From a virus (taxonomy: Duplodnaviria; Heunggongvirae; Uroviricota; Caudoviricetes), in the IMG/VR virus record IMGVR_UViG_2700989509_000025, positions 1-19,341 of that record: a stretch of 19,341 bases of DNA; one strand, 5' to 3'. Of the stretch, positions 1-18,105 are shown one piece after another. How positions within the stretch are numbered: position 1 is the stretch's first letter; each line of letters starts with the position of its first letter. Below the pieces are notes generated by a model that worked only from the letters and a program-made list of their open reading frames with translations, did not search any database and was not told the DNA's origin. Position numbers and translations under genes: made by a program.

Positions 1-1191
1 ATGGCGCAAAATCGCCGTTGCCAGACGGTCGGAAATAATCCCGCGGCGAGCCCATGAACTGAAATGGCTCGCCCTGTCCTGTGACGTCCAGGTGGCTGAG
101 CTGTCACGCCATTTCGAACCGTAATATCCGATACCCGGAATGTCCGGGTCTTCTTCCGGTTTGTTCGTCGGCACATTCACCCCGTTCTCATCCGTCATGA
201 ACGGTACGAAATGGATATTCTTTTCCGTTTTGTTTTTGTAGCTGCCGTACACCGTCTGGTACGTGGATTCGTTCTTCTGCTTCCAGAAATACGTCGTATC
301 TCCACATATCCAGGGAACACCGCCAGCAGAGCCACCGACGCACTGACCTGCCATATCCGCCAGGTCTGCACGGAATTTATCAACCAGCGCACCAAACTGT
401 GCTGCGTGATTTACCGGCGTACCGCCAAAATCAAATTCCCCCTGCATCCACACCACGGCAAACAGCACATTTTTCGGGTTCTTCTTCAGTGCTGCTTTTG
501 TTCGACCGATAAGGTCCTTATACAGCGGCTTGTCCACACCCCAGCGGGTTGAATTCTCCGAGGCACCACTCGCGTCACTGTATGTGCCATCAGCTCCGGT
601 GGTGAACGCTGAACCACCACGACAGCACGGAACCAGCAGAATGCCCGCATTCGCCGGTATAAACGGCAGCAGTTTTTTGGCGATATGCAGCCCCTGCCCC
701 ACGGTTCCGTACTGCCCCTTTGACAGGTCCGCTTTCGGATGGTTAAGGCGGCTCATGTCCTGCACATCATGCAGACAATGGTCCGCCGGAATGATGTCGT
801 TATATTTGCATGCTGCACCGCCCGGTGTCACCGTACTGCGGCGCGCCAGCTGCTTAATACGCAGGTCCGGACGGTCATATGTCTCCGGCAGCGGAAGGCC
901 TTCACCATATGCCATGCTGTTTGACTGCCCCGCCAGAACCACAACAAAGTAATACTCCGGGTCTCTGGTGGCGCTGATTACTGTGCCTTCTCCATCCGAC
1001 GGCTTCACCACAACAGGTGTGCTCACATCACCTTCTGCGACAATCGCCTGAATAAGTGCTGCGCCATCATCCGTATACGAAGAAAACGGCCCGCCGTATG
1101 GTTGCCATCCTTCACGAATTTTTTGAGCAAGTGCATCAGCAAGGTCTGACGGCGACACCGCCCTGACCACATCGTAGTGTTTAAATGCCAT
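1..1191 (-). CDS. NanS-p-like sialate O-acetylesterase (DUF1737-like N-terminus plus SGNH/SASA hydrolase domain); C-terminal end cut by window edge
   Basis: Manually translated open frame from ATG at 1189-1191 (SD GGAGGA just upstream) running to position 1 with no stop; absent from ORF track because no stop in window. Translation begins MAFKHYDVVRAVSPSDLADALAQKIREGWQPYGG and contains VVLAGQSNSM (GQSN block of SGNH hydrolases). Plus-strand ORFs 211..552 and 530..952 lie antisense to it. Confidence 0.7.
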   Translation of the reverse strand, partial: MAFKHYDVVRAVSPSDLADALAQKIREGWQPYGGPFSSYTDDGAALIQAIVAEGDVSTPVVVKPSDGEGTVISATRDPEYYFVVVLAGQSNSMAYGEGLPLPETYDRPDLRIKQLARRSTVTPGGAACKYNDIIPADHCLHDVQDMSRLNHPKADLSKGQYGTVGQGLHIAKKLLPFIPANAGILLVPCCRGGSAFTTGADGTYSDASGASENSTRWGVDKPLYKDLIGRTKAALKKNPKNVLFAVVWMQGEFDFGGTPVNHAAQFGALVDKFRADLADMAGQCVGGSAGGVPWICGDTTYFWKQKNESTYQTVYGSYKNKTEKNIHFVPFMTDENGVNVPTNKPEEDPDIPGIGYYGSKWRDSSATWTSQDRASHFSSWARRGIISDRLATAILRH

Positions 1192-1378
1192 GAATCCTCC
1201 CGGCCGGGATAATGTTGTGAGTCAGATAAGGGGCGGGCTGAAGTCCGGAAGTTACAGGACAATGACAGAAGGAAGACTACAGCCCGCAATACGAAAAAGG
1301 CCGCGCAGTTGCGCAGCCTTATAAACCCTGGTTAAAATCCACACGATAAAAATGACAATGCAAGTATCTCATGCTGTT

Positions 1379-1403
1379 GCCCGAACCTACTCGGGCTTTT
1401 TTT
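1379..1403 (+). terminator. Intrinsic terminator-like hairpin (plus orientation)
   Basis: GCCCGA-acctac-TCGGGC stem-loop followed by TTTTTTT. Confidence 0.5.
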
Positions 1404-1408
1404 GCATG

Positions 1409-1434
1409 TAAAAAGGCTCCTGCGATGAGGAGCC
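1409..1434 (-). terminator. Intrinsic terminator-like hairpin (minus orientation) downstream of the tRNA cluster
   Basis: On minus strand GGCTCCT-catcgc-AGGAGCC followed by TTTTT; sits back to back with the plus-strand hairpin at 1379..1403. Confidence 0.5.
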
Positions 1435-1721
1435 TGGATATATGCCTAATCTCTGTATACAGCATGATGCCGGGTGCCTCCCGGTGAATTCTGCAATGAC
1501 CAGACAGAATCCGCAACTTGCCTATACAATACGCAACCAAACATCTGTCATTATGCCCCGCCGCCCAGGGGGATTCATCATGCAGGATTTTTTTAACAAA
1601 CGCTCAGCATGTCAGGCAACAGTCAACTACCTGAATTGTGAGGCATTTAACATTTCACTGTCCGGTGTCTTTCCTGTAATAAAAAGCCCGCAAAAGAGAG
1701 TCAGGGCAGATAAGTGTGGTG

Positions 1722-1798
1722 TGGCGCGTTGTACTGGATTCGAACCAGTGACCGATTGCTTAGAAGGCAATTGCTCTGTCCGGCTGAGCTAACAACGC
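1722..1798 (-). tRNA. tRNA-Arg (anticodon UCU)
   Basis: Minus-strand read GCGTTGT-TA-GCTC..GAGC-A-ATTGC-CTTCTAA-GCAAT-CGGTC-ACTGG-TTCGAAT-CCAGT-ACAACGC-G-CCA; perfect 7-bp acceptor stem, T-loop TTCGAAT, encoded CCA, anticodon loop CTTCTAA. Confidence 0.8.
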
Positions 1799-1811
1799 AT
1801 GATGCTGATAA

Positions 1812-1888
1812 TGGACTGCCATCGGGGACTTGAACCCCGCACAGCCAGCTTCGAAGGCTGGCGCTCTGTCCCGATGAGCTAATGGCGG
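1812..1888 (-). tRNA. tRNA-Arg (anticodon UCG)
   Basis: Minus-strand read CCGCCAT-TA-GCTC..GAGC-G-CCAGC-CTTCGAA-GCTGG-CTGTG-CGGGG-TTCAAGT-CCCCG-ATGGCAG-T-CCA; cloverleaf fits with one C-A mismatch at acceptor pair 2:71, so boundaries need tRNAscan confirmation. Confidence 0.65.
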
Positions 1889-1897
1889 TATGTGATA

Positions 1898-1973
1898 TGG
1901 TGGCCCTTGCTGGATTTGAACCAGCGACCTGGCGATTATGAGTCGCTCGCTCTCACCACTGAGCTAAAGGGCC
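1898..1973 (-). tRNA. ileZ: tRNA-Ile2 type (anticodon CAU; software will call Met-CAT), ileZ-like phage tRNA
   Basis: Minus-strand read GGCCCTTTAGCTCAGTGGTGAGAGCGAGCGACTCATAATCGCCAGGTCGCTGGTTCAAATCCAGCAAGGGCCACCA; closely resembles recalled E. coli ileX/ileZ-type tRNA; anticodon loop CTCATAA. Confidence 0.8.
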
Positions 1974-2011
1974 GGGAGCAGAATAATAACGGTCCGTAAT
2001 TAATTCCGCAA

Positions 2012-2036
2012 TAAAAAACCCGCTCAATGGCGGGTT
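2012..2036 (-). terminator. Intrinsic terminator between ORF6N gene and tRNA cluster
   Basis: On minus strand ACCCGC-cattga-GCGGGT followed by TTTTTT (plus strand shows A-run 2013..2018 before hairpin). Confidence 0.55.
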
Positions 2037-2131
2037 CTGGTAAAGTTCATGCGCTTGGTTCGCCTCGCGATACAGCTTTGCGAAGCGTACCGGGATTGAA
2101 GCAGTTTATGGCTAAAATTGCAAGAACTTTT

Positions 2132-2743
2132 TTAAAGCTGCATCAGCCTTTCCACCAGTTTATCTCTGCGAACAACAAACCAACCATTGGCTCTCGCCAG
2201 TTCCAGCCATGACTCAAGGGAAATAACAATATCATCATCCCGCAACTGAATTGTGGAAACAGTGACACCGCCTCGCTGATAACAGAGAACTCGCGTGTCG
2301 TAACTTTTCTGGCATGAAACTGGCGCTGACGGATCCTTTTGTCTGAAATAGCAGTCTTCCAGTCTTTCGAACACATCCCACGCCTGATCGGTTTCGAGCA
2401 TTTTGGCATGACGGGCTGCTCCGCGTTCTGTCCAGAGTATGAGGGAGCGGGCTTTCGGGGAAATTTGTAACCCTCTTAAAGATGGTTGCAAATTTTGTGA
2501 GTTACTTAAAGTAACCCGCAAATTTTGTGAGTAGTTTAAAGCTACCCGCAATTCTTTAAGGTCATTACCAACAACTTTGAAAAAGTGTTTCCCTTCAACG
2601 AAGCGTACTTTGTTCTCATGATGATTCTGGCGAATACGCACCGGCTCAGTGCCGTAAAGCTGCGCCAAAAGTTCGGTGGTAATAACAGGAATCTGGTTAT
2701 GGGTGATCGGGGAGAGAGTTTCAACAGAAATTTGAGTTGTCAT
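2132..2743 (-). CDS. ORF6N-domain protein (antirepressor/Roi/Bro-N-like N-terminal DNA-binding domain) with uncharacterised C-terminal domain
   Basis: 203-aa ORF; SD GAGGG about 7 nt upstream of ATG at 2743; N-terminal sequence (KVRFVEGKHFFKVVGNDLKEL ... ISPKARSLILWTERGAARHAKMLETDQAWDVFERLEDCYF) resembles recalled ORF6N-type domains; first gene after the PR'-like promoter and leader terminator. Confidence 0.6.
   Translation of the reverse strand: MTTQISVETLSPITHNQIPVITTELLAQLYGTEPVRIRQNHHENKVRFVEGKHFFKVVGNDLKELRVALNYSQNLRVTLSNSQNLQPSLRGLQISPKARSLILWTERGAARHAKMLETDQAWDVFERLEDCYFRQKDPSAPVSCQKSYDTRVLCYQRGGVTVSTIQLRDDDIVISLESWLELARANGWFVVRRDKLVERLMQL
2461..2560. repeat. Tandem ~30-bp direct repeats (3 full copies plus partial) inside the ORF6N gene, each with a near-palindromic TTTAAAG core
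   Basis: aaatttgtaaccctcttaaagatggttgc / aaattttgtgagttacttaaagtaacccgc / aaattttgtgagtagtttaaagctacccgc / aattctttaag...; translated on minus strand as 10-aa repeats LRVALNYSQN / LRVTLSNSQN / LQPSLRGLQI. Confidence 0.75.
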
Positions 2744-2902
2744 AATGACGCCCTCTGGTGGTTTCTTAATAACTCACCACCGACGACGCCAATCGTCTGG
2801 TGGTGAACTGTGCAGGGTTGGCGTAACCGGGAAACCGACCGGCGCGGATCTCTCCGCCCCCACACAGCCCACCATAATTCAGATGTGCGCGTGCATACGA
2901 CA

Positions 2903-2926
2903 ATAAAAAACACGCTCGCGGCGTGT
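2903..2926 (-). terminator. tR'-like intrinsic terminator of a short late leader transcript
   Basis: On minus strand ACACGC-cgcga-GCGTGT followed by TTTTTTATTG; about 55-75 nt downstream of the PR'-like promoter. Confidence 0.6.
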
Positions 2927-2987
2927 ATCTGTCGCGGTCTCTATCCAGGACGCCAATCCCGACGCCAGATTTTGCTGGCGCGTGAGG

Positions 2988-3017
2988 AATATAGCCCCGG
3001 ATAACAGATTGAGTCAA
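2988..3017 (-). promoter_or_regulatory. PR'-like late promoter (probable site of Q engagement)
   Basis: Minus strand TTGACT (3012..3017) - 18 nt - TATATT (2988..2993); the -35 overlaps the stop codon of the Q-like gene. Confidence 0.6.
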
Positions 3018-3568
3018 CAGACGGTTTTTAGATCCCCGGAAGAGAATGCATCACGCATCGGCAGATAGAGCATAAACTCTGCCATTTTCAACCACGCATC
3101 TATGCGATTACGGCACGTGGCGTAACACCACTCAGGGTGTGAATCATTCAGCAATTCAGCCATTTTTCGCTTAGTCATCCCCCGCCCTTCATATCGTTGC
3201 CGGAGGATACAAATCAATCCTGGGTGTTCTGCCAGCACTTCACTAATCACCCGATCAATGCATAACGCCTCTGCATCAGTACAATGCACCAGCCAGCTTT
3301 TTTGCTTGCCGTTGATCATATCCCGCAAAAAAGCCTCAAGTTCAGGTTTGTCCAGACCTGCTTTTTTCATCCTCCGGAGCGCCTCGTTAATTGCCGTTTT
3401 TGTCAGCTTTTTAGAGGTCAGCAACTGGTTGAACATATTTCCCGTCTTACCGCCGCCAATATACGACCAGCGCCCCCACATGCGCAGTTTTCCCTGAATC
3501 CAGACACTTTCCAGCGTGGTGAGACGAAGGTGTTCCCCGCTTTTGCCTGTATTTGTTGGGTAAATCAT
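3014..3568 (-). CDS. Q-type late antitermination protein (assignment from position and sequence character)
   Basis: ORF track gives 3014..3688; preferred start is internal ATG at 3568 (MIYPTNTGKSGEH...) with SD GGAAGG and ATGA overlap with the upstream gene stop. Lies between nin-region genes and a strong promoter plus short terminator; C-terminal MTKRKMAELL...RNRIDAWL looks like a sigma region-4-like HTH. Confidence 0.6.
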   Translation of the reverse strand: MIYPTNTGKSGEHLRLTTLESVWIQGKLRMWGRWSYIGGGKTGNMFNQLLTSKKLTKTAINEALRRMKKAGLDKPELEAFLRDMINGKQKSWLVHCTDAEALCIDRVISEVLAEHPGLICILRQRYEGRGMTKRKMAELLNDSHPEWCYATCRNRIDAWLKMAEFMLYLPMRDAFSSGDLKTVC

Positions 3569-3855
3569 AAATAACCTTCCTTTCTCCAGATTTCTTGTGT
3601 GCGAAAAACACCTTCTGCATGCATCAGGCGTAATTCTTCTTTGGTGTAATCGCTGGTTTTTACCCGCCCGTCGATTAAATCGTGGCATGAGCTACAGGCA
3701 ATCGCTGCCTGCATATCGTGTGGTTTTGTCGCTGTTCCGCACGTCCCCGCCAGCCTGTAATGCGCCAGCACAGAAGTTTCGGGATTGTGATTGCAGTAGC
3801 CAGGAATTCTGACGGTGCACATCTGCCCCCGCGCCGCTTTACGTAAATCCACCAT
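3565..3855 (-). CDS. YbcO-like (DUF1364) Cys/His-rich putative nuclease of the nin region
   Basis: 96-aa ORF MVDLRKAARGQMCTVRIPGYCNHNPETSVLAHYRL...ACSSCHDLIDGR; resembles recalled DLP12 YbcO; stop overlaps Q start (ATGA). Confidence 0.6.
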   Translation of the reverse strand: MVDLRKAARGQMCTVRIPGYCNHNPETSVLAHYRLAGTCGTATKPHDMQAAIACSSCHDLIDGRVKTSDYTKEELRLMHAEGVFRTQEIWRKEGYL

Positions 3856-4454
3856 TACGCAAACTCCAGTAACTGCGCGGCCACATTTTCGACTTCCTCC
3901 GGAGAGGAAAATTTACGGAACAGGATCCAGTTCCACAGCACATTCAGTACAGATTTATAAACCTGCTGAAACACGGTTTCGTCCATGTTCGCAAATGCGA
4001 TAGATTTTGCCCTGCGCCCACGACTACCATCAGGATAAATATGCTCGGTGTAAAATCCGGCCTGAATGGTTACCCATTCGCGAAAAGCGTCAAAGGACTT
4101 GAGTAAGGCCGTATCCCGGGTTCTGCAAGTCGTAACGGTGTTAAGGTATTGCTCTGCGGCATCACTCAGGGCTGGCGTATGTTCCCGACCTACTGATTCG
4201 CACAGGAAATCAACGAAACCGGACACCAGTTCTCGTTCGCGAGGCGTGATCGCCCCACCGTTCGGAGTCCAGTAATCGAATCCCAGTTGCAGGAGTTTGA
4301 AAAAACGCTTGTGGAATGCGTAGTTACGCACACGCTTAAAGTCTGCGTGTATCCACTCACCGATTTTGATTTGATGCAAAAAATCGCAACTCTCCGGCGT
4401 CGCCGGGAGAAGTAATCCGGAAGAGGTTTGTTTGACCAGTTGTATATGCGCCAT
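3855..4454 (-). CDS. nin-region phage protein of unknown function (possibly DUF1367-type)
   Basis: 199-aa ORF with SD GGAGAA 6 nt upstream of ATG at 4454; stop overlaps next start (TAATG). Family name from recollection only. Confidence 0.55.
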   Translation of the reverse strand: MAHIQLVKQTSSGLLLPATPESCDFLHQIKIGEWIHADFKRVRNYAFHKRFFKLLQLGFDYWTPNGGAITPRERELVSGFVDFLCESVGREHTPALSDAAEQYLNTVTTCRTRDTALLKSFDAFREWVTIQAGFYTEHIYPDGSRGRRAKSIAFANMDETVFQQVYKSVLNVLWNWILFRKFSSPEEVENVAAQLLEFA

Positions 4455-4525
4455 CGTAGTTCTCCGCTGGCGCAGTAGAATGGGTGTTCAGCCCGTTATG
4501 TAGTATACCAGAATTAATGCCAATA

Positions 4526-4777
4526 CTAACAGGATGCTCTGACTCGCAATTCATCCAGCAGTTTATCATTTCCCATAATGTCACTTACCCTCATCGGTAA
4601 AAAAATTGCCTTTCGACCATTACGATACATCATTGATTTTGGGGTTTCAGGGAAGTAATCCATTTCGACTATAACTGACAGGTCATCACGACGTATGACT
4701 GCGTATTTGCAACTAAATAGTTTCTTTATTTTTTCCACGATGCCTCCGAGTTTATAAGTACAAACGGTTATATCCAC
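4526..4777 (-). CDS. Hypothetical small protein (start uncertain)
   Basis: 83-aa ORF in AT-rich spacer; codon at 4777 is GTG with no clear SD; internal ATGs also lack SD. Confidence 0.25.
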   Translation of the reverse strand: MDITVCTYKLGGIVEKIKKLFSCKYAVIRRDDLSVIVEMDYFPETPKSMMYRNGRKAIFLPMRVSDIMGNDKLLDELRVRASC

Positions 4778-4920
4778 ATAGAGACAAAAATATTAATCTG
4801 AAAAATATTTATTTCACGCCGTATATTTGATTATTTAATGTGCAGGTACAATGACTTTTATTTTTTGTTGTGTATATAATCAAATATATGGTTATTTTTC
4901 ACCCTGCGCATTCAGCGCGC

Positions 4921-4946
4921 AACAAAAAACCCGCCGAAGCGGGTTT
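4921..4946 (-). terminator. Intrinsic terminator downstream of hok
   Basis: On minus strand AAACCCGC-ttcg-GCGGGTTT followed by TTTTTTGTTG. Confidence 0.6.
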
Positions 4947-5013
4947 AGTGCGGGTGCGTTAAGGATGCCTGACACATGAGAGGTGGCGAGGGATTTCTCC
5001 CCCGCCTGGTCTC

Positions 5014-5169
5014 TTACTCCTCAGGTTCGTAAGCTGTGAAGACAGCGACCTCCGTCTGGCCGGTTCGGATTCGTACCTCGCAGAGGTCTTTCCTCGTTAC
5101 CAGTGCCGTCACTATGACGGTTAAACAGATGACGATCAGGGCGATTAACATCGCCTTTTGCTGCTTCAT
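5014..5169 (-). CDS. hokD: Hok/Gef-family type I toxin (HokD/RelF-like small membrane peptide)
   Basis: 51-aa product MKQQKAMLIALIVICLTVIVTALVTRKDLCEVRIRTGQTEVAVFTAYEPEE matches recalled HokD; SD AAGGAG 9 nt upstream of ATG at 5169. ORF track extends in frame to 5226 (19 extra codons). Confidence 0.8.
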   Translation of the reverse strand: MKQQKAMLIALIVICLTVIVTALVTRKDLCEVRIRTGQTEVAVFTAYEPEE

Positions 5170-5345
5170 AGCCTGCTTCTCCTTGCCTTTCGGCACGTAA
5201 GAGGCTAACCTACGTGTGTAGAGCATAGATATGGCCTCAGATTAATGTTAAGCGTCTTGCCGGACGCGTAATGTTAACTGGGGCTTTTCTCTATCTGCCT
5301 TTTGGTGTTCATGCCTGAGGCAGATAGCCTCAAGCACCCGCAGCA

Positions 5346-5374
5346 ATTCTAACTATCCAATAGATCAATGCCAA
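5346..5374 (-). promoter_or_regulatory. Candidate sigma70 promoter for hok mRNA
   Basis: Minus strand TTGGCA (5369..5374) - 17 nt - TAGAAT (5346..5351); would give a ~170-nt structured leader containing a 9-bp inverted repeat (CTATCTGCC...GGCAGATAG). Confidence 0.4.
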
Positions 5375-5726
5375 CTTCTTTTCCTGCAACATCTCTCATC
5401 ATAAGTGACCCAAATTCATCCAATCAGCACAAAAGAAACATTTAAAGCGTGAATGCTACCGAACGTTCATTTCAATTACATCGTTTTGATTTTTAACAGT
5501 TTTCACCTCAACAAATCAAATGGCATTAGCATTCATCATGGAAGAAAGACTGATAAAAATGATCATTTTCAATGACTTATGATCACACCGGGTATTGCCA
5601 AGTCATTCCTTTTACGCCAGGATACCCACAAGTGAGTAGTCGAGGAGAGTTTGCCAATTTTTGCGATATAAATTTCAATGCCCGAAGAACCATTAATTGT
5701 TAATTGATTCTGTATAAGGTATTAAC

Positions 5727-6824
5727 ATGACAATTTCATATATTCCTATTCTGAAAGCGAAACGTTCTGAGTTATCAGCTTTATCGCAGCTATCCATTGA
5801 AAAGAAATCAAAAATTTTGCCATTACTCGAAATTGAACCAGTGCCAATTGACCCTGATTCAGGTATTGCCTTAAAGAGTTATAACGAGACTCTTATAGAG
5901 TTCGGAAAGAAAGTCTCAAAATCTTGCTCAGATATGCAAGGTGTTTATATTGATGGATTATTAATTGAAGAGCATTTTATTTCTCCTGAAGATCATTACC
6001 CTATAATAAATGCGGTTAATCAAGTTAGAGATATGGGGATAAGAGTTATTCCTGTCAGTTCACCAACTCGCCCATCTAACTATAAAAGAGCGATTGATGA
6101 ATTAATGCAGAATGAAATATGCTTGAGATTAACCACGTTAGATCTGGTTAACCCACAATTAATAACGCATTACATTAATCATCTGGGAATTCCTTTATCA
6201 AATATTGATATAATTATTGACTTAAGAGATGAGTTAACCGAGGATAAAATTAATTCCGGCGAACTATATACTTTGGCAATGGGATTGATAAACAATCTGG
6301 CGCACCTCAATGAATACAGAAAAGTGATTCTTTCTGGGGGTTCATTTCCTACAGATCTCAGTGATATTTCTGTTGGTCTATATTCTCAACCTCGAATCGA
6401 GTGGATTTTATGGCAGAGTTTAATGAATAGAAAAGAACTTGCCAGAAATGTGATTTATAGTGATTATGGAGTACAGCACCCCGACTTTAATAGGCTTTCG
6501 ACGCGATTCCCTAGCGTATCTGCCAGCGTCAGATACTCTGGAGATAATGACTTTTGGGTATTTCGAGGAAGAGTAGCTAATCGCTTTGGTTATGAACAAT
6601 ATGGTAAACATAGTGAGGATATTCTTGCTCATCGAGAATATTCAGGGCCTACATTCTGTGCGGGAGATAGAGACATAGAATATTATGCAAACGAGTATCA
6701 AGCCTACAAAGCCAATCCCTCTGGTAACTATAAATTTGGTAGCCCAGAGGTATGGCGTAGGATTGGGCAAAACCATCACATAACTAAGGTTGTTGAGCAA
6801 CTCGCCACTCTTTACGGGCTTTAA
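5727..6824 (+). CDS. Beta-family-like protein (P4 Beta / sce7725-type, by recollection); candidate defense component
   Basis: 365-aa ORF in markedly AT-rich DNA; N-terminus MTISYIPILKAKRSELSAL; SD AAGG about 8 nt upstream; 3' end overlaps the convergent gene by 41 bp. Confidence 0.6.
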   Translation: MTISYIPILKAKRSELSALSQLSIEKKSKILPLLEIEPVPIDPDSGIALKSYNETLIEFGKKVSKSCSDMQGVYIDGLLIEEHFISPEDHYPIINAVNQVRDMGIRVIPVSSPTRPSNYKRAIDELMQNEICLRLTTLDLVNPQLITHYINHLGIPLSNIDIIIDLRDELTEDKINSGELYTLAMGLINNLAHLNEYRKVILSGGSFPTDLSDISVGLYSQPRIEWILWQSLMNRKELARNVIYSDYGVQHPDFNRLSTRFPSVSASVRYSGDNDFWVFRGRVANRFGYEQYGKHSEDILAHREYSGPTFCAGDRDIEYYANEYQAYKANPSGNYKFGSPEVWRRIGQNHHITKVVEQLATLYGL

Positions 6825-7362
6825 GTTTAACTCGAACAGCTTCACGAAGCTCGCCAACATCCATACTATTGGCGAGTTTTGACCATAAGACGCGTTTAGG
6901 TTTATTTTTCAAATTCTGTAGCTCCCCTACATCACTTAATAGGGAAAGCAATTCATCTTTCCAAAGAAGCATTGTTAAGGAAAGTTTGTCCACTTGTGGA
7001 TTCAACTTGCTAGTTCGAATTGTTTTTAAATGGATACCTTGCCGTGCACCTTGCGTAACTTGCTTTATCCCCCACCATGATGGAACTATGCTTAAAGCAT
7101 CATAAAGATGGCAATCAGAGACAACCAAAGTTACTTTATCCATCACTGATGAGTAATGTTGCACCTGCGCTGGTAATCTGAGCAAGTTATCACTCTTGCT
7201 CTTCAACTCATAACCATGTATAAGCCCATTGATCACTGCTATATCAGCTCTGCTAGCCCCTAGATTCATCGTAAACTCATCAATGATTAGGGTGTCAGGA
7301 TCTTTATGATGATCTCTCAGAATCTTGGCATGCACAGCCTTTCTTACATCAATGTCTCTCAT
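6784..7362 (-). CDS. sce7726-type protein with PD-(D/E)xK-like nuclease motif; candidate defense component
   Basis: 192-aa ORF, AT-rich; contains D (in LIIDEF) followed about 20 aa later by E-L-K (GYELKSKSD), the spacing of PD-(D/E)xK cores; also WWGI and LLW blocks I associate with sce7726-type proteins. Weak RBS. Confidence 0.55.
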   Translation of the reverse strand: MRDIDVRKAVHAKILRDHHKDPDTLIIDEFTMNLGASRADIAVINGLIHGYELKSKSDNLLRLPAQVQHYSSVMDKVTLVVSDCHLYDALSIVPSWWGIKQVTQGARQGIHLKTIRTSKLNPQVDKLSLTMLLWKDELLSLLSDVGELQNLKNKPKRVLWSKLANSMDVGELREAVRVKLKARKEWRVAQQP

Positions 7363-7684
7363 ACCATAGTTGCGCTTTCATCGACTCTCTCAAGCCATGA
7401 TTCTATATCATGGTTCGCATGAATGCCATTTGATATGACCAGTGGTTAAACATTGCACAGAAAAGTGGATGTGTATTTTAACAAAAGCAATGACGGCTAA
7501 CCATGTTGGTATGTCGATAAAATGTTTCAACGTAAGCATTATCTGTTCCGCCCTTTCGGGCGGCCTCCTGATGTTCTGAGGGTGCAGAAATCCCTCCGGT
7601 TAAGGATTAAATTTTATTTACAGAACTGAATTTAATTATTCAGATATACGTATCTGTAACCTTACTAACCTACTCACTGGATGC

Positions 7685-8158
7685 CTATTTCATAAAAATA
7701 ATCCAGTGGGTTTTATCGTTTTTTCCTGTTCGTTGACCGATAACAGGTTTTCTGTCGGTCAGTGCCAATATCTGGCGAACAGGTATTTGCGTTTCATTCC
7801 ATTTAAAAATCAGAACGCCGTATGGACGCAACACACGAAAGGCTTCTTTAAATCCCTGCCGCAAATCATCACGCCAGGTATCTTTATTCAGCCGTCCATA
7901 TTTCTTTCCCATCCAGGCGTTATCACCAACACGCTCAAGATGCGGAGGATCGAATATAACCATCGAAAAAGATGCGTCTGCAAATGGTAGTGCACGAAAA
8001 TCAGCTATCAGATCAGGACTGATAATCAGGCGTCGTCCATCACACAATGTGTGCTCTTCCTTTCTGATATCGCTAAATATCGCCCGGTCGTCATTCTTAT
8101 CGAACCAGAACATGCGACTGCCACAGCACATATCAAGAATGGTTGCCGGTGCACTCAC
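7685..8158 (-). CDS. Small phage DNA methyltransferase (Dam-like, N6-adenine or N4-cytosine class)
   Basis: 157-aa ORF with GTG start preceded by AGGAGG; motif I-like ILDMCCGSR and motif IV-like VIFDPPHL; GTGA overlap with upstream gene. Confidence 0.65.
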   Translation of the reverse strand: MSAPATILDMCCGSRMFWFDKNDDRAIFSDIRKEEHTLCDGRRLIISPDLIADFRALPFADASFSMVIFDPPHLERVGDNAWMGKKYGRLNKDTWRDDLRQGFKEAFRVLRPYGVLIFKWNETQIPVRQILALTDRKPVIGQRTGKNDKTHWIIFMK

Positions 8159-8571
8159 TGCGCTACCTCCTGAAAATTACCCTGATAGAAAGCCAGTACA
8201 CGCTGCATAGCTTCGCTCTTCCGGCACTCGCGACAGATTATATTCAGGCGCCTGTCGTAGCGGCGTATTTCTCCGTCTGGTAATGAATAAACCAGGTCCG
8301 GGTCGCTCTTTTTTTTCACTGCTGCTTTCGACATCTTTTTGCGGGCCTTTATCCAGTCCTTACGTGCCTGTTCAGACGGAAATAACCCGTAGCCGGAGTT
8401 GTATAAATCGCCACTGGCAACCAGCTCTCTGGCAAGAACACTCATCAGATATCTTGTCGCACCTGTCTTGGCTTCCAGTTGCCGTAACGTCTCGCGACCG
8501 CTCAGACGTACAAGTTCAACAACCTGCCCTTTAATTTTTTCCCGCTCTTCTGGTGTAAATACTTTTGCCAT
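8155..8571 (-). CDS. Phage hypothetical protein
   Basis: Track ORF 8155..8586 uses TTG; preferred start is ATG at 8571 preceded by GGAGG (8 nt); 138 aa, basic, C-terminal ICRECRK. Confidence 0.55.
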   Translation of the reverse strand: MAKVFTPEEREKIKGQVVELVRLSGRETLRQLEAKTGATRYLMSVLARELVASGDLYNSGYGLFPSEQARKDWIKARKKMSKAAVKKKSDPDLVYSLPDGEIRRYDRRLNIICRECRKSEAMQRVLAFYQGNFQEVAQ

Positions 8572-8586
8572 AAGCGCCTCCGGCAA

Positions 8587-9357
8587 TCACTTTTCCGATA
8601 CAACACGGCGGGAAGAATCAGTAATCTGTCGAACAATATCCCGGTGCTTGTTCAGCTCCCGCAGCGCGGCGCAGACTCGCTCCCACTTCTGAACATCACT
8701 TTTCGCCCTGCGCAGCGCCAGGTTTGCCCTGCGAAGGGACGGAAAAATCAGCTCATCTGCTTGCGTTTCGGTAAACGATGGCAACGGCTGCACAATGTCC
8801 GCCACAGTTTCTGTTTTAATTTCTTCCTGTGTTGCGGCTTCCCGGACTGGTAACGCAGCACCTGCTGGCTGAGGAAAGGCCTTACCATCACTTTCCGTTA
8901 CCAGCGCGGCTTTCGGCTCTGCTGGTAAATTATCGCCCGGCATGCAGTAACGAAATCTACCGTTCTGATTAACGCGTGCCAGCCGCCCCGTTGCGGTTAC
9001 CACCGCCAGCGTGGAAGCAACCTTGCGAGTACTGACACCGAACTTACCCGCTATTTCTTCACAGGTTTTAGCCCCCTCCTGAGCGATAAACTCAATCATC
9101 ATGTTAGCGCTAACTTTTGGAGCGACCTCTTCGGTCAGCATATCCTGTGTTTCAGATTTTACTGGCCGCTCTTCGGTTACCCGGGATTCACCTTCGACAG
9201 CCAGAAACCAGGTGTGACCCGTTTTATCAACAACGCCATTTTTTTTGAGCTCCCACAGTTCGTTGATAACTTCTTCACGGCTGATATCAATTCGTGCCGC
9301 CAGTTCAACAGAATTGGCTTTTCCCATCGCTTTCAGTGCATGTAATACGGTTTCCAT
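8587..9357 (-). CDS. Phage protein with N-terminal winged-helix-like domain (possibly DUF1627-type)
   Basis: 256-aa ORF, SD GAGGTGA 8 nt upstream; N-terminus METVLHALKAMGKANSVELAARIDISREEVINELWELKKNG looks like a wHTH. Confidence 0.55.
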   Translation of the reverse strand: METVLHALKAMGKANSVELAARIDISREEVINELWELKKNGVVDKTGHTWFLAVEGESRVTEERPVKSETQDMLTEEVAPKVSANMMIEFIAQEGAKTCEEIAGKFGVSTRKVASTLAVVTATGRLARVNQNGRFRYCMPGDNLPAEPKAALVTESDGKAFPQPAGAALPVREAATQEEIKTETVADIVQPLPSFTETQADELIFPSLRRANLALRRAKSDVQKWERVCAALRELNKHRDIVRQITDSSRRVVSEK

Positions 9358-9382
9358 CGAAAATTCACCTCGTTAAAAATTC

Positions 9383-10123
9383 TCACATACCCTGACGTCC
9401 AACGTTTGACCGCCAGCTCTCCCAGTTAAAATTCACCCAACGACCACCGTTCATGGTCATCCGGTCCATAATCCTCTCACCAAGAAGCGTGCTCATTGCG
9501 GCATGATTCAGGTTTGTCAGCATCCCGACACTGCGCAGTGATGCCGTCCGGCGGTCAACAATCTGGTGCAGTACCACCTGCTCGTTTTTCGTCTCACGCT
9601 GGATGCCAATTTCGTCAAGAACCAGGAGGTCCACTTCGCACAGTTCACGCAAAAATTTTTCGCCTGACTGCCCGTCGTCATAGCTGGCGTGCAGGGCGCT
9701 CATAACATCAGCCACGGTAACCACAATCACTGTCTGACCGTCTTTCAACAGGCGATTCCCGATAGCTGCCGCTAAGTGATTCTTCCCGGTACCAGGTTTT
9801 CCGCTGAACGCAAAATTTGTACACCCGGTCATCAGTTCATCGGCGATGGATTTCGCCTGGCTTAACGCGTATCGCTGGCCGTCGTTCTGCACCTGGTAAT
9901 TCGCAAACGAGCATTTACGGTGCAACGGCTGGATGCCTGAGCGATTCAGAATTTTTTCCACCCGCAACTGACAATTCAGGCGGTTGATCTCCTCGCTACG
10001 TTTCTGGCCTTCAGCAAGTTGCCACTCGCGCCACTCCGCAACCGTTCTGAATGGGGCGGTTACATGTGGTGGGGTCAGTCTGCGGATACGCTCCAGAACG
10101 CCTCCTGTCGCAATATTTTTCAT
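9383..10123 (-). CDS. DnaC-like replicative helicase loader (IstB-like AAA+ ATPase; YdaV-like)
   Basis: 246-aa ORF with Walker A FSGKPGTGKNHLAAAIG and Walker B DLLVLDEIG; immediately follows the replisome-organizer gene. Confidence 0.8.
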   Translation of the reverse strand: MKNIATGGVLERIRRLTPPHVTAPFRTVAEWREWQLAEGQKRSEEINRLNCQLRVEKILNRSGIQPLHRKCSFANYQVQNDGQRYALSQAKSIADELMTGCTNFAFSGKPGTGKNHLAAAIGNRLLKDGQTVIVVTVADVMSALHASYDDGQSGEKFLRELCEVDLLVLDEIGIQRETKNEQVVLHQIVDRRTASLRSVGMLTNLNHAAMSTLLGERIMDRMTMNGGRWVNFNWESWRSNVGRQGM

Positions 10124-10129
10124 GGCCTG

Positions 10130-10918
10130 TTACCCCCTGAAGCCTGGCGGGATCGCACTGTCCGGCAACGAGACGGTGTTAACCTGTCGGAGCAACGTCT
10201 CAGGCCGAACACCTTTCGGTGCGAACAAGCCCTGGTATTCATTGGCAATGCTGTGTCGAATCACCTGCTCAGGTGTAAAACCCTGCTGACGGAATTTTTC
10301 CAGTTCCCGTATCGCCCCGTTAGCGCCCTGCTCCGTTCGAATCGGTTTTCGCAATGCCTGCCTGAACTGAACCCACTCATGCCAGAGTGTTTCCGGCAAC
10401 CAGTCAGGCAGCTCGATAGCCTCCGGCTCGAATTTTTTAGACGCTCGTTTTTGGCGAGGGGGATTTAGGGGGAGATCAGTATTTATATCTTCCTCTTCCT
10501 CTTCCTCTGGTAACGCTTTTTGATCCGTTTGTGTAACGCTGCCAGCGTTACCTTTTCGTTTCAGTTCGCGTATTTTTGTAACTCGCTCGTTTGTAACCGC
10601 CCGTTTTTTAGAGCTTTTTCCGTTATGACGTTCAAAGTTAGGTAGAGAAAGCCCACCGTCATTTTCGACCAGCCATCCAACCTGAATTAACGCATCAGCA
10701 AAACCAGCCATAAAAGTGATGCGATCTATTGCACTTTTTGTAACGCCGCGAGCGTTACAATCTGCATTACCGTCTATCATTTGTTGATCCGCCCATGCCC
10801 AGAAGCGAATAACCTTCCCTAATGCGGCATCTGGATCAATATTCAGAATCTCAGCAAGCCTGAATATTTCCGGCTTATCCGGCGTAATAACCTCGAGCTT
10901 TATCCAGTTTGAAGCCAT
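10130..10918 (-). CDS. Replication initiator / replisome organizer (lambda O-like function; YdaU-like)
   Basis: 262-aa ORF with acidic linker PEEEEEEDIN; position between cII-like gene and DnaC-like loader; contains two copies of a 19-bp palindrome, with a third just upstream. Confidence 0.65.
   Translation of the reverse strand: MASNWIKLEVITPDKPEIFRLAEILNIDPDAALGKVIRFWAWADQQMIDGNADCNARGVTKSAIDRITFMAGFADALIQVGWLVENDGGLSLPNFERHNGKSSKKRAVTNERVTKIRELKRKGNAGSVTQTDQKALPEEEEEEDINTDLPLNPPRQKRASKKFEPEAIELPDWLPETLWHEWVQFRQALRKPIRTEQGANGAIRELEKFRQQGFTPEQVIRHSIANEYQGLFAPKGVRPETLLRQVNTVSLPDSAIPPGFRG
10533..10551. repeat. 19-bp palindrome GTAACGC-N5-GCGTTAC, copy 1 (inside initiator gene)
   Basis: gtaacgctgccagcgttac; extra GTAAC half-sites at 10510..10516, 10578..10582, 10593..10597. 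Confidence 0.8.
10740..10758. repeat. 19-bp palindrome GTAACGC-N5-GCGTTAC, copy 2 (inside initiator gene)
   Basis: gtaacgccgcgagcgttac. Confidence 0.8.
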
Positions 10919-10931
10919 TTGTTTTCACCTT

Positions 10932-10950
10932 GTAACGCTCGCAGCGTTAC
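10932..10950. repeat. 19-bp palindrome GTAACGC-N5-GCGTTAC, copy 3 (noncoding, 14 nt upstream of initiator start, next to its SD)
   Basis: gtaacgctcgcagcgttac. Confidence 0.8.
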
Positions 10951-10995
10951 ATTTAACTGATACCGAACAAAACAATCCGGCACGATTAATTTCAA

Positions 10996-11418
10996 TCAAT
11001 GCACTACGACAGAATCGCCGGGCGACCCACCACCGCTGAAATGTGCTTTCCGGTAAACGGCCTGGACTGCATCATCATGCGCATCAATTGCCGTACTCAA
11101 CGCTTCCTGCGCCGCCAGTAATGCACGGCGTTCCAAGGTATCGAAGATGCAGAGTCGGTGACGCAGCTCGCGCGGAAGAATTGCCAGAACCGCAGGGATC
11201 AGTTTCTGAATTTTTTCCCTTTGCGCTTTCGTTTCACCTTTCAACCAACGGTGATAGATATTCTGCTGATTGTTCCAGTCCTTGCCTGGTACAAGGGGCA
11301 ATTCGCCGCCCCCCTGGCGCAGATATTCTTCAGTAATTGCGTTAGCGACCCACGCCTGCCCTTTTTCGGCTGCCAGGGCTAACAACACTGATTCGATGTG
11401 CTCATGCCTGATTTTCAT
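10996..11418 (-). CDS. YdaT-like protein (cII-position gene of Rac-type immunity region)
   Basis: 140-aa ORF directly downstream of cro-like gene with ATGA overlap; same position and size as recalled Rac ydaT. Confidence 0.6.
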   Translation of the reverse strand: MKIRHEHIESVLLALAAEKGQAWVANAITEEYLRQGGGELPLVPGKDWNNQQNIYHRWLKGETKAQREKIQKLIPAVLAILPRELRHRLCIFDTLERRALLAAQEALSTAIDAHDDAVQAVYRKAHFSGGGSPGDSVVVH

Positions 11419-11657
11419 GAATCAACCGCTCCTATGCTGTTTTCGCTATGCTTACCGTCTGGGGGGAATACATCGTCAAGTCCACAATGAGCGCCAAGCC
11501 GATTAAGGGTAGAAACAATTTTTCTGCACTCCTCTAGTCCAGGGGTACGAAAATTTGCTTCGTAATTTGCCAGTCGGCTTTGTATCCACCCTAACTGAAC
11601 AGCAAGTTGTCTTTGAGACAGCCCAAGCTGTTTTCGATATGTTGAAATTTTGTTCAT
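11415..11657 (-). CDS. Cro-like HTH regulator (YdaS-like)
   Basis: 80-aa ORF, HTH segment LGLSQRQLAVQLGWIQSRLANYE; SD GGAGG 7 nt upstream; divergent from repressor gene. Confidence 0.7.
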   Translation of the reverse strand: MNKISTYRKQLGLSQRQLAVQLGWIQSRLANYEANFRTPGLEECRKIVSTLNRLGAHCGLDDVFPPDGKHSENSIGAVDS

Positions 11658-11753
11658 TGAAAACCTCCGATGACAATTTTAAACACATCTTGTGTTATAT
11701 GGTCAAGCTGTTTTGTGTTTTGTGTAAATCACGATTCGTGATACAAGGATGCA
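11658..11753. promoter_or_regulatory. Divergent immunity promoter/operator region
   Basis: Minus-strand promoter TTGACC (11701..11706) with TAAAAT/TTAAAA around 11676..11682; palindromes AACACA-tct-TGTGTT (11682..11696) and ATCACGA-t-TCGTGAT (11728..11742). Confidence 0.55.
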
Positions 11754-12173
11754 ATGGAAAAAGAAAACGAAAAAATTGCCGCTAGTAGGCTCAATGACAA
11801 AATTGCAATGCGTCTTAAAGAGCGCAGGCAGAAGCTTGGTTTATCTCAAGGAAAACTTGCTGAAATCTGCGGATGGACGCAATCGCGTATAGGTAACTAT
11901 GAGGCGGGTAGCAGAAATGTTGGAGTGCATGACGCTGTCGTATTGGGAAAGGCACTTGGCATATCTCCTCCTGAGCTCCTCTTTGGAGAACAGGAATCTT
12001 CTGAATTGTGGTTAAATGAATCCCAACGAAAACTTCTTGAGTTGTTTAACCAGCTACCGGGCTCAGAACAACAACGAATGATTGAGCTATTTGAAGTCCG
12101 GCTAAAAGAAATCGATGAGTATGTAGAAAAATATTTGAGAGGCAGGCTTAAAGATAATCCCCCACCGGAGTAA
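11754..12173 (+). CDS. Prophage repressor, XRE-family HTH (RacR-position), no obvious S24 peptidase domain
   Basis: 139-aa ORF, HTH LGLSQGKLAEICGWTQSRIGNYEAG; SD AAGGA upstream; divergent from cro-like gene. Confidence 0.7.
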   Translation: MEKENEKIAASRLNDKIAMRLKERRQKLGLSQGKLAEICGWTQSRIGNYEAGSRNVGVHDAVVLGKALGISPPELLFGEQESSELWLNESQRKLLELFNQLPGSEQQRMIELFEVRLKEIDEYVEKYLRGRLKDNPPPE

Positions 12174-12203
12174 TGATCTTGCTATCACAGTAATATGCCA
12201 ATC

Positions 12204-12228
12204 AGCCCGCTATCAGCGGGCTTTTTTT
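12204..12228 (+). terminator. Intrinsic terminator after repressor gene
   Basis: AGCCCGC-tatca-GCGGGCT followed by TTTTTTT. Confidence 0.7.
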
Positions 12229-12270
12229 GTACCATCATCATATGACACCCACCACAAAACACATTTCGTG

Positions 12271-12299
12271 TTGACACAAGAAAACGCATTGTGTTTAAT
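12271..12299 (+). promoter_or_regulatory. PL-like early-left promoter with overlapping operator-like palindromes
   Basis: TTGACA (12271..12276) - 17 nt - TTTAAT (12294..12299); flanked by AACAC-atttc-GTGTT and ACACAAG...TTGTGT inverted repeats. Confidence 0.55.
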
Positions 12300-12479
12300 A
12301 AGCATATCCAAACAACGCCCCACCAGAGAACGGCAGGACAATACCTCGAGTTATCCAGCCACTGAACAGGGCTAAGTAGCCAGCCTGAGGCATACGAACA
12401 TGACGGCAGTTGTTGATTGATACAAAGCGCAGTAGATAAAACGTTCCGCCACCCGGCGTTAAGGGGAAATGAGGTCAAC

Positions 12480-12632
12480 ATGGATACTATCGATCTTGGC
12501 AACAACGAATCTCTGGTATGTGGCGTGTTTCCCAATCAGGACGGCACATTCACCGCCATGACGTATACCAAAAGCAAATCGTTTAAAACCGAAGCTGGCG
12601 CACGTCGCTGGCTTGCCAAAAATACCAGCTAA
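12480..12632 (+). CDS. Small early-left protein (YdaF-like)
   Basis: Internal ATG at 12480 of track ORF 12417..12632, preceded by GAGG; 50 aa MDTIDLGNNESLVCGVFPNQDGTFTAMTYTKSKSFKTEAGARRWLAKNTS. Confidence 0.45.
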   Translation: MDTIDLGNNESLVCGVFPNQDGTFTAMTYTKSKSFKTEAGARRWLAKNTS

Positions 12633-13040
12633 ACCATTTATTGGATTAATTCAATATTCTTGCTGTAGGGGTATAGCCGAGGCCACCAAAGCCCGGAGGT
12701 GGTGAAATAAAACCGGGCACAACACGAAGGCGCATTTCCGGTATCCATAAAGAGTCGGTCTTGTCTGTTAAATTTAAATGGTGGGAGTGCGCCTCCGGTT
12801 GTAAATAACGACATTGCTATGTGTAGTCTTTGGCGGCATCAGTTCTACTCCGTGGCTGCCCTGCCGCCCCTTTTTAAAGTGAATTTTGTGATGCGGTGAA
12901 TGCGGCTAAGCGCACGCGGCACAGTTAAAAGCATCAGTGTTATGGGTGGATTATCCGGCGTTAATTGTTAACTGGTTAACGTCACCTGGAGGCACCAGGC
13001 ACCGCATCGACAAAATTCATTTGTAAAAATGGAGATAATT

Positions 13041-13432: not shown

Positions 13433-13506
13433 TTAACTGACTATCCGAAACTGAATTTATGCCAGCAATGGCAGGGATTCGCTCAACCTTAATTAAGGAG
13501 AAAAAC

Positions 13507-17357: not shown

Positions 17358-17413
17358 TTCAGCCTGGCGGTGTAATGCACCGCCAACTTGAAATATTTTT
17401 TATGAGAAAAATT

Positions 17414-17608
17414 ATGAGATATGACAATGTTAAACCATGTCCATTTTGTGGTTGTCCATCAGTAACGGTGAAAGTCATTTCAGGATATTACCGAGCGAAG
17501 TGTAACGGATGCGAATCCCGAACCGGTTATGGTGGAAGTGAAAAAGAAGCACTCGAAAGATGGAATAAACGAACCACTGGAAATAATAACGGAGGTGTTC
17601 ATGTATAA
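17414..17608 (+). CDS. ralR: RalR/Lar restriction-alleviation protein
   Basis: 64 aa from internal ATG at 17414: MRYDNVKPCPFCGCPSVTVKVISGYYRAKCNGCESRTGYGGSEKEALERWNKRTTGNNNGGVHV. Confidence 0.75.
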   Translation: MRYDNVKPCPFCGCPSVTVKVISGYYRAKCNGCESRTGYGGSEKEALERWNKRTTGNNNGGVHV

Positions 17609-17789
17609 AATTACCGCCACTATTGAAAAGGAAGGTGGCACTCCTACTAACTGGACAAGATATTCAAAATCTAAACTAACGAAATCAGAATGCGAAAAAA
17701 TGCTCTCAGGTAAAAAAGAAGCAGGCGTTTCCAGAGAGCAGAAAGTAAAACTGATAAATTTTAATTGCGAGAAACTTCAGTCCTCGTGA
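17601..17789 (+). CDS. ydaC: YdaC-like small protein
   Basis: 62 aa from ATG at 17601 preceded by GGAGG; start overlaps ralR stop. Confidence 0.65.
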   Translation: MYKITATIEKEGGTPTNWTRYSKSKLTKSECEKMLSGKKEAGVSREQKVKLINFNCEKLQSS

Positions 17790-18104: not shown

Positions 18105-18105
18105 T

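Follow-up and report, generated by a model that had tools for sequence, protein, structure and literature searches.

A small toxin gene of the Hok family is located on the minus strand of a 19,341-nt Caudoviricetes sequence (IMG/VR record IMGVR_UViG_2700989509_000025, positions 1 to 19,341), hereafter the window, a term that denotes the whole stretch of DNA that was analyzed. In Escherichia coli K-12, the same 51-aa peptide, HokD or RelF, is encoded by the third gene of the relBE-hokD (relBEF) operon in the Qin prophage, and the original prediction for the window had singled out the gene as standing alone in a Rac-type prophage, next to a "cargo island" and without relBE. The question raised by this locus is whether the toxin gene has strayed from an operon or belongs to a complete module of the hok/sok kind, that is, a "host-killing" toxin paired with an antisense RNA.

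The features described below point to a complete module. Positions 4922..5374 of the minus strand, together with the gene for the Sok antisense RNA on the opposite strand, very probably (we estimate the probability at about 0.9) constitute a complete type I toxin-antitoxin cassette of the hok/sok family, which would belong to the hokD/hokW subgroup, form a small, autonomous insert in the early-right region of a Rac-like lambdoid prophage, with the replication genes on one side and the nin/Q genes on the other, and operate by a mechanism of the type described for plasmid R1 and for hokW. The locus is real but ordinary: the element is common and already known.

The hok gene and the mok reading frame

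The hok gene (5014..5169, minus strand) encodes a peptide, MKQQKAMLIALIVICLTVIVTALVTRKDLCEVRIRTGQTEVAVFTAYEPEE, that is identical at 51 of 51 positions to K-12 HokD (NCBI WP_000813254.1) and matches the Pfam family HOK_GEF (2.9e-23; 81.6 bits, cut-off 22). On the strength of the Pfam match and the identity to HokD, it can be assigned to the small (~50 aa) hydrophobic toxins of the Hok/Gef type. As originally predicted, the reading frame is intact, with the correction that its initiator ATG is at 5169 and not at 5166, and it is preceded by a good Shine-Dalgarno (SD) sequence, GGAG at 5182..5179, 9 nt before the ATG. The HokD coding sequence has been reported to be toxic (bioRxiv 10.1101/2025.08.07.668861).

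The 19-codon extension that had been noticed in frame upstream of hok corresponds to the mok reading frame (5226..5014, minus strand), which comprises 70 codons, is read in the same frame as hok and is equivalent to the open reading frame annotated as mokW in phage 933W. The mok ATG at 5226 follows its own SD sequence, GAGG (5235..5238, minus strand), at a distance of 8 nt; this GAGG shows no variation (entropy 0) in the 14-sequence hokD/W clade and, in the minimum free energy (MFE) structure of the full-length mRNA, is predicted to be sequestered.

Promoter, leader and 3′ region of the hok mRNA

A candidate promoter had been placed about 170 nt upstream of hok, and such a sequence is indeed found at 5374..5346 of the minus strand, where a -35 hexamer, TTGGCA (5369..5374), and a -10 hexamer, TAGAAT (5346..5351), are separated by 17 nt and together match the consensus at 10 of 12 positions in a promoter scan. 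Transcription would start near G5339, which lies 7 nt downstream of the -10 box, 170 nt from the hok ATG and at the first position of the Rfam model RF01794. This model is matched over its entire length (positions 1-157 of 157) by 5339..5164 of the minus strand, with a score of 118.7 bits (gathering score, 59; E = 5.9e-27); given that the match is on the strand of the hok mRNA, what it detects is the leader rather than the Sok RNA. The -10 hexamer is conserved in the hokD/W clade and forms the left edge of the conserved cassette; the -35 hexamer comes from the local flank and lies outside of the cassette. The aligned loci diverge from one another upstream of the -10 box, and the megablast matches in most genomes stop exactly at window position 5351. 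The conserved homology thus extends exactly from the -10 box (5351) to just past the terminator (4921), which suggests that the -35 hexamer is supplied by whichever flank the cassette happens to have.

With its 5′ end at G5339 and its 3′ end at the T run of the terminator, the full-length hok mRNA would be ~418 nt long (4922..5339, minus strand). The predicted MFE structure of this RNA has an energy of -172.8 kcal/mol (z = -8.2 compared to shuffled sequences) and pairs nucleotides 1-12, GGGUGCUUGAGG (5328..5339, minus strand), with nucleotides 376-388, CCUUAACGCACCC (4952..4964, minus strand). These two segments correspond to the translational activator element, tac, at the 5′ end of the mRNA and the 3′ fold-back inhibitory element, fbi, respectively. 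The predicted tac-fbi duplex consists of 12 bp with an energy of -19.3 kcal/mol, and none of 200 shuffles yielded one as good. The fbi of the window carries, at T4961, a private C-to-T change, absent from the other aligned copies, that converts one G-C pair into G-U and shifts the energy of the duplex from -21.5 to -19.3 kcal/mol, a slight weakening in which the pair is kept.

Downstream of tac, the leader contains a 5′ hairpin (5291..5327, minus strand) formed by an inverted repeat with the arms CTATCTGCCT (5327..5318) and AGGCAGATAG (5300..5291). The inverted repeat of the original prediction is accordingly present and perfect, but measures 10 bp rather than the 9 bp assigned to it. The hairpin is followed by the ucb (anti-SD) box AGCCCC (5280..5285, minus strand), which is complementary to tac and, in the MFE structure, pairs with the SD sequence of mok; the inverted repeat denoted I1 extends across tac and ucb. 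A closed, untranslatable form resembling this predicted structure has been described for the hok mRNA of plasmid R1, and the mechanism of sequestration by ucb that is assumed here is taken from the same source (PMC9841398). When the last 40-60 nt of the mRNA were removed in silico, the MFE structure contained a local "metastable" hairpin of tac with the adjacent sequence and not the tac/ucb stem, so that the refolding step of the published model is not reproduced by simple thermodynamic folding.

In the 3′ untranslated region, a stable stem-loop, GGCGGGGGAGAAAUCCCUCGCC (4985..5006, minus strand), is presumed, by analogy to the work on R1 summarized in PMC9841398, to protect the 3′ end of the processed, translatable mRNA. 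The expected downstream terminator was located at 4946..4927 (minus strand), where an 8-bp stem, the inverted repeat I3, is followed by TTTTTGTT. The unit had been delimited as 5014-5380; the elements ascribed to this interval are present, but the unit runs to lower coordinates, with the 3′ untranslated region, including fbi and the terminator, reaching down to ~4922.

The predicted Sok antisense RNA gene

An antisense promoter had been envisaged on the plus strand around 5170..5260. A scan for consensus promoters called none on the plus strand of this interval, where the Sok promoter scores only 7 of 12 matches, but homology to the experimentally tested promoter of sokW argues for a promoter at 5183..5211 (plus strand). 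This putative promoter consists of TTGCCT (5183..5188), a 17-nt spacer and TAACCT (5206..5211), and is identical to its counterpart in 933W. The conclusion that there is no antisense promoter was rejected, since departure from the consensus is a known property of the Sok promoter and since the identical TAACCT box is needed in sokW: when Takada et al. replaced the TAACCTA box to obtain a promoter-less sokW (primers YO-421/422), protection against HokW was lost (PMC8621323).

The Sok gene itself is predicted to occupy 5218..5288 of the plus strand (71 nt), its position having been carried over from the misc_RNA annotated as sokW in AF125520, so that the Sok locus as a whole would span 5183..5288. 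In the fold of the predicted RNA (-28.6 kcal/mol, z = -5.4), a single-stranded 5′ tail of 15 nt is followed by a long hairpin and then a U tail; the RNA is complementary to the start region of mok and to the leader. At the sequence level, the gene displays the features of a genuine Sok, namely cis-encoding, a promoter of its own, a 5′ tail, a terminator hairpin and coverage of the mok start. The leader likewise compares well with those of the hok/sok family, in that mok, the Sok target, tac, fbi and a putative ucb are all in place, and the antisense promoter and the Sok gene complete what appears to be a functional hok/sok-like unit, as had been suggested.

Conservation of the cassette in homologous loci

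All sequence elements of the cassette are present, intact and evolutionarily conserved. A scan of one genome per species yielded 62 loci encoding relatives of Hok, of which 40 with a complete leader were aligned using MAFFT; these 40 homologues come mainly from Escherichia, Kluyvera, Citrobacter, Pseudocitrobacter, Photorhabdus and Pantoea, with three additional records titled otherwise. When the structure predicted for the window was imposed on this alignment, 88.4% of the cells could pair, compared to 38-46% when the pairing partners were slid by 1-3 columns, and the number of pairs with changes on both sides was 40, compared to 13-20 in the slid controls. A structure that is derived from one of the aligned sequences is bound to be favored over its slid versions, but the compensatory changes are not explained in this manner. 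In particular, position 4 of tac and its partner in fbi form a U-A pair in 27 of the homologues and a C-G pair in 11, and the 12-bp tac-fbi duplex is kept, with compensatory changes, in all 40. The latter result was obtained by duplex folding of each individual sequence, which replaced a column-wise count because, in the inner half of the duplex, that count misses pairs in Photorhabdus, where a 1-nt bulge shifts the register of the MAFFT alignment. The 5′ hairpin (helix 2; 93% of the cells paired) and the stem-loop at 4985..5006 (helix 18; 98.5%) each include three pairs that are changed on both sides. Three lines of evidence, the Rfam match, the Pfam match and the covariation in the 40 homologues, back the membership of the locus in the hok/sok family.

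The start of mok is conserved as well: its ATG is present in all 40 homologues, and GAGG is found 7-9 nt before it in 39, the exception being L046, which has GGGG. The frame of mok relative to hok varies, with mok in frame in 27 homologues, at +1 in 6 and at +2 in another 6, and in whichever of the three frames, mok reaches the start of hok in 39 of the 40; in L046, hok is frameshifted and no stop occurs in the stretch that was read. This variation is compatible with translational coupling rather than with conservation of a Mok peptide.

Relationships with K-12 hokD and other known hok loci

Apart from the 51-aa peptide, the K-12 hokD gene shares with the window the hok SD sequence, the 3′ untranslated region, fbi and the terminator (97.7% identity, window positions 4921 to 5183), and its site, upstream of the region of the Q antiterminator in a lambdoid prophage, is broadly equivalent. 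The K-12 copy, however, lacks everything upstream of window position 5183, that is, the hok promoter, tac, ucb, the mok start, the Sok promoter and Sok, and contains relE instead. Judging from this alignment, the K-12 copy is the truncated, derived one, and the window carries E. coli hokD in its full-length form. The cassette is also closely related to hokW-sokW of the Shiga-toxin phages. Pedersen and Gerdes reportedly identified K-12 hokD as a truncated hok locus (Mol Microbiol 1999); the truncation is deduced here from the direct alignment. The window represents the opposite arrangement: no relB or relE was detected anywhere in it by tblastn or blastn searches with the K-12 genes, in agreement with the original prediction, and the leader is complete, so that the locus cannot be classified as a relBE-hokD operon.

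Among 5426 complete E. coli genomes, hok is joined to a leader of the window type in 4037 (~74%; 226-nt probe comprising the leader and the 5′ part of hok, at least 80% coverage), whereas the relE-hokD junction (221-nt probe) is found in 1173 (~22%). A single genome contains up to 10 copies of the cassette, and there are, in addition, about 450 plasmids with the cassette at a coverage of at least 80% and 79 matching phage records. Taken together with the K-12 alignment, these counts indicate that the stand-alone form is the usual, complete one. The idea that relBEF is where the peptide "belongs", and that its occurrence outside of this operon is noteworthy, finds no support in these counts, the derived state of the K-12 copy and the mok and hok genes that are already annotated in the phage Rac record (see below); the genome counts thus correct a K-12-centered view of hokD. 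The importance of the locus is limited mainly to correct annotation, Sok and mok being usually unannotated in genomes; it also adds to the examples of the full-length form, of which K-12 contains a truncated copy, and could be useful in studies on why lambdoid prophages so often carry a hok/sok module. According to a recent survey, Hok is encoded in about 80% of Enterobacteriaceae genomes, with a four-fold enrichment in prophages (10.1101/2025.08.07.668861).

The closest experimentally characterized relative is hokW-sokW, with mokW, of the Stx2 phage 933W and the Sakai prophage Sp5 (VT2-Sakai), which is likewise prophage-borne and shows 94.1% DNA identity over 94% of the cassette. The order of the elements is the same (promoter -10 box, tac, ucb, an in-frame mok of 70 codons, a hok of 51 aa, and fbi), and 933W annotates mokW, hokW and sokW, the last opposite the mokW start. 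In the Sok genes, both promoter hexamers, the 17-nt spacer and the hairpin (54/54) are identical, whereas the Sok 5′ tail, which overlaps the mok start, differs at 6 of 17 positions. Four residues differ at the C-terminus of Hok (FTAYEPEE in the window, FVDYESEK in HokW), and after fbi, the 933W copy continues with a different sequence in which no GC-hairpin terminator could be aligned. The locations within the phages are also distinct: hokW-sokW is near the right end of the 933W genome, and the window cassette is in the nin region. Experimentally, hokW-sokW is a toxin-antitoxin system of type I, with toxicity, neutralization by Sok and loss of this neutralization when the -10 box is mutated; both RNAs were detected on northern blots, and HokW was found in the inner membrane (PMC8621323).

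The founding member of the family, hok/sok (parB) of plasmid R1, has the same architecture and the same elements, namely tac/fbi, ucb/dcb, mok, and Sok with a 5′ tail and a hairpin (PMC9841398). Loci of the R1 type underlie the Rfam family that the window matches; compared to the Rfam consensus, the Sok-target hairpin of the window contains an insert of ~16-18 nt. In sequence, however, the relationship is a distant one: for most hok loci on plasmids, the match to the cassette query is confined to positions 114-187, a segment that begins at the mok ATG and extends past the hok start codon, and shows ~80% identity. In R1, mok is out of frame with hok, as it is in some of the relatives of the window cassette, whereas in the window the two are in frame. 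The R1 locus is plasmid-borne, and the window copy is chromosomal and resides in a prophage. HokW and the R1 Hok protein are 44% identical (PMC8621323).

Finally, the record of "Escherichia phage Rac" (MN652886.1, from E. coli 442/2) contains annotated mok and hok genes that are 95.4% identical to the window over the whole cassette. This copy is found in the same type of prophage and in the same slot, after the replication-region genes ydaV, ydaW and lygF and before those for DUF1367, YbcO and Q. One extra base shifts its mok to the +1 frame, with 68 codons, and its neighbors differ, with rem downstream, small hypothetical genes upstream and no counterpart of the gene pair that is found upstream of hok in the window.

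Proposed mechanism and possible roles

The transcription, processing, toxicity control and biological role of the window copy can be inferred from R1 hok/sok and hokW-sokW. Under the mechanism transferred from these systems, a constitutive promoter would yield a stable hok mRNA of ~418 nt, in which the 5′ tac pairs with the 3′ fbi; in the closed mRNA, the ribosome-binding site of mok would be hidden by ucb, allowing neither translation nor binding of Sok. Slow trimming of the 3′ end would then remove fbi, so that the mRNA refolds and exposes the mok start, and ribosomes translating mok would run into the start of hok, allowing the synthesis of Hok. As long as transcription continues, the short-lived, 71-nt Sok produced from the opposite strand would pair with the mok start region, and the duplex would be destroyed. 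The supply of Sok could end because the element is lost, because an infecting phage shuts off host transcription or because the prophage is induced; Hok would then be made and inserted into the inner membrane, and the cell would be killed or lysed.

The most likely role of the cassette would be assistance in lysis and phage release upon induction, as for hokW-sokW. This role is ranked first given that it is the only one demonstrated for a near-identical prophage locus: Sok of hokW-sokW vanished once mitomycin C was applied, and when the locus was lost, lysis came later and phage release fell by half (PMC8621323). Nevertheless, hokW is located elsewhere in its phage, so its induction-linked behavior might not be transferable. 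Prophage retention and abortive infection are possible roles that rank after assistance in lysis. A stabilizing role, in particular, appears doubtful considering that the chromosomal hokA, hokB and hokC gave no post-segregational killing in earlier work (summarized in 10.1101/2025.08.07.668861).

The failure of these chromosomal loci also lends some credence to a different view of the window locus, namely, that it is a silent or decaying remnant which looks intact but, like the K-12 hok loci, no longer kills and has no role in the prophage. Decayed relatives do exist: hok is frameshifted in L047, L052 and L063, L008 has an altered tac and promoter region, and in L022, fbi is replaced by an unrelated sequence; the window itself carries the private G-U wobble in the tac-fbi duplex. 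This wobble, however, keeps the pair, no element of the window is damaged or out of register, the toxin has exactly the sequence of the peptide reported to be toxic, the Sok promoter matches an experimentally active one, and thousands of genomes retain the cassette at 95-99% identity. Decay to a silent remnant thus seems quite improbable. Even harder to defend, and in our view extremely improbable, is the notion that hok is mainly a passenger of the early-right transcript, like K-12 hokD in the relBE operon, with its own leader and Sok being of little importance. The gene has the same orientation as the replication, nin and Q genes, all of which are on the minus strand; moreover, the leaderless hok genes read from relBE, which are found in the 1173 genomes mentioned above and in other genera (L014, L028, L032), show that operon-driven expression of hok exists. 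Against this stand the conservation under structural constraint of the leader, mok, the Sok promoter and fbi, for which a passenger gene would have no use, the cassette's own promoter and terminator, and the low-GC cargo island, with an oppositely oriented gene, that separates the replication genes from hok.

If the locus is a complete cassette, an additional, rather unlikely possibility is that each prophage copy acts as a private kill switch that does not cross-react with the others, and that induction silences Sok through opposing early-right transcription, coupling the release of Hok to it. Should this be the case, every prophage would, independently of the others, hold hostage a cell with up to ten copies. 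The segment containing the Sok 5′ tail and the mok start is the most variable stretch of the conserved cassette and differs between copies within a single genome. Its variability (0.79 bit), however, resembles that of an unconstrained hairpin loop of the same mRNA (0.72 bit); on these data, diversifying selection on the Sok tail is indistinguishable from neutral drift, and private kill switches are not favored over drift.

Prophage context of the cassette

The complete hok/sok cassette resides in a prophage whose assignment to the Rac type in the original prediction is confirmed by recE, recT, ralR/RalA and intR. The window contains ralR and a match to RalA (225 bits), and near-identical genomes annotate recE, recT, ralR, xisR and intR next to ttcA, as well as ydaT and ydaV; the window ends inside the integrase gene, so that ttcA itself is outside of it.

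The GC content of the cassette is ~50%, and the cassette is flanked by AT-rich stretches. The small open reading frame downstream of it (4526..4777) was considered as a candidate for Rem, which is encoded in K-12 and in phage Rac, and was rejected, showing no similarity. Upstream of hok, the cargo island consists of a low-GC pair of convergent genes, one encoding a "beta family" protein (PF14350; PADLOC PD-Lambda-2_C at 1.8e-41) and the other an sce7726-family protein (PADLOC "cll" at 2.4e-28). No gop-like third gene of useful size was found beside this beta/cII-like pair. In the near-identical prophage of strain 2013C-4974, the cargo slot is occupied by other genes and hokD is in place, which indicates that hok belongs to the backbone of the prophage and that the cargo island is the variable part.

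The cargo island and its exchange

The low-GC cargo island adjoining hok (5014..5169, minus strand) consists of two convergent genes (5727..7362) assigned by family profile matches. The first (5727..6824, plus strand) encodes a member of the Beta_protein family, PF14350, and is also recognized by the PADLOC models PD-Lambda-2_C (1.8e-41) and "beta" (2e-4), and the second (6784..7362, minus strand) encodes an sce7726-family protein (NF033832, 1.7e-56; PADLOC "cll", 2.4e-28). The names of these models resemble those of beta and cII in the gop-beta-cII defence region of phage P4; a gop-like gene was sought beside the pair and was not found. Defence against lambda-vir requires PD-lambda-2C (PMC9519451). 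Together, beta and sce7726 are a candidate anti-phage unit of two genes.

The same position is occupied differently in a close relative of this prophage. Escherichia coli 2013C-4974 carries, at ttcA, a Rac-type prophage (L067 of the comparative scan) that is 98% identical and retains hokD in an unchanged place, with a DUF551 gene and a small ORF filling the slot held in the window by the beta/sce7726 pair (6613..7818 of L067 compared with 5014..7362 of the window). The slot is a site of cargo exchange. Between the cargo pair and a DUF977 gene lies a gene for a 157-aa methyltransferase (7685..8158, minus strand). The PADLOC models that recognize it are those for Type II MTases (2.4e-73) and for orphan MTases (6.2e-50).

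Boundaries and variation of the hok cassette

The homology between hok cassettes of different prophages begins exactly at the -10 box (5351) and stops a few bases past the terminator (4921), leaving the -35 hexamer outside the mobile unit, so that the strength of the hok promoter should depend on the insertion site.

Within hokD/W-type cassettes (those related to hokD of K-12 and hokW of 933W), the most variable part is the 17-nt stretch that comprises the Sok 5′ tail and the start of mok (5218..5234 in the window, and the aligned positions of loci L007, L008 and L018). Its mean column entropy is 0.79 bit; the Sok hairpin has 0.09 and the hok coding region 0.11. This stretch is unlike even among the copies of a single genome, CP178302.1, and such a variable tail could endow each Sok with specificity for its own hok. 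The variability cannot be told apart from neutral drift, given that a loop of the same mRNA under no constraint scores 0.72.

At position 4961, within fbi (4952..4964), the 3′ UTR element that pairs with tac (5328..5339) at the 5′ end of the hok mRNA, the window has T where every other aligned hokD/W copy has C; a G-U pair thereby replaces G-C in the tac-fbi duplex, which is weaker for it (-19.3 instead of -21.5 kcal/mol). The Tyr47 codon of hok, UAC (5031..5029), is embedded in UUACGAA, the motif of the tRNA deaminase TadA (UACG, 5028..5031), which is close to invariant across the 40-sequence alignment. The hokD mRNA, like that of hokB, is reported to undergo A-to-I editing at this codon, resulting in a Tyr to Cys replacement (preprint 10.1101/2025.08.07.668861).

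Other copies of the cassette have decayed: hok is frameshifted in L047, L052 and L063, the promoter/tac region is altered in L008, and unrelated sequence takes the place of fbi in L022. Decayed and intact copies coexist in the same or related genomes, so that each copy needs its own check for intactness.

The relE-hok junction outside K-12

The K-12-type junction, in which a leaderless hok follows relE, is found in other genera as well, namely in Shigella flexneri (L014), Enterobacteriaceae bacterium G50 (L028) and Kluyvera sp. (L032), in each case upstream of the hok match at 3001. The Hok peptides beside these junctions are just 69-79% identical to HokD, and the relBE-hok operon is therefore an old, maintained arrangement and no accident of K-12.

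RNA gene annotation

The Rfam model RF01794, labelled "sok antitoxin", matches the strand of the hok mRNA, from +1 as far as the hok start codon (5164..5339); Sok is encoded by the other strand (5218..5288, plus strand). An automatic annotation that relied on this match would give "sok" the wrong strand and a length more than double the true one. The window has many further known prophage RNA genes: RalA (the RalR antitoxin), DicF, isrK, STnc100, AgvB, three tRNAs, and the C4 antisense RNA together with its a1/b1 targets; as a group, the prophage RNA genes span 17607..17785, 12818..12869, 2796..2994, 1344..1612 and 1725..1973, all above the Rfam gathering scores.
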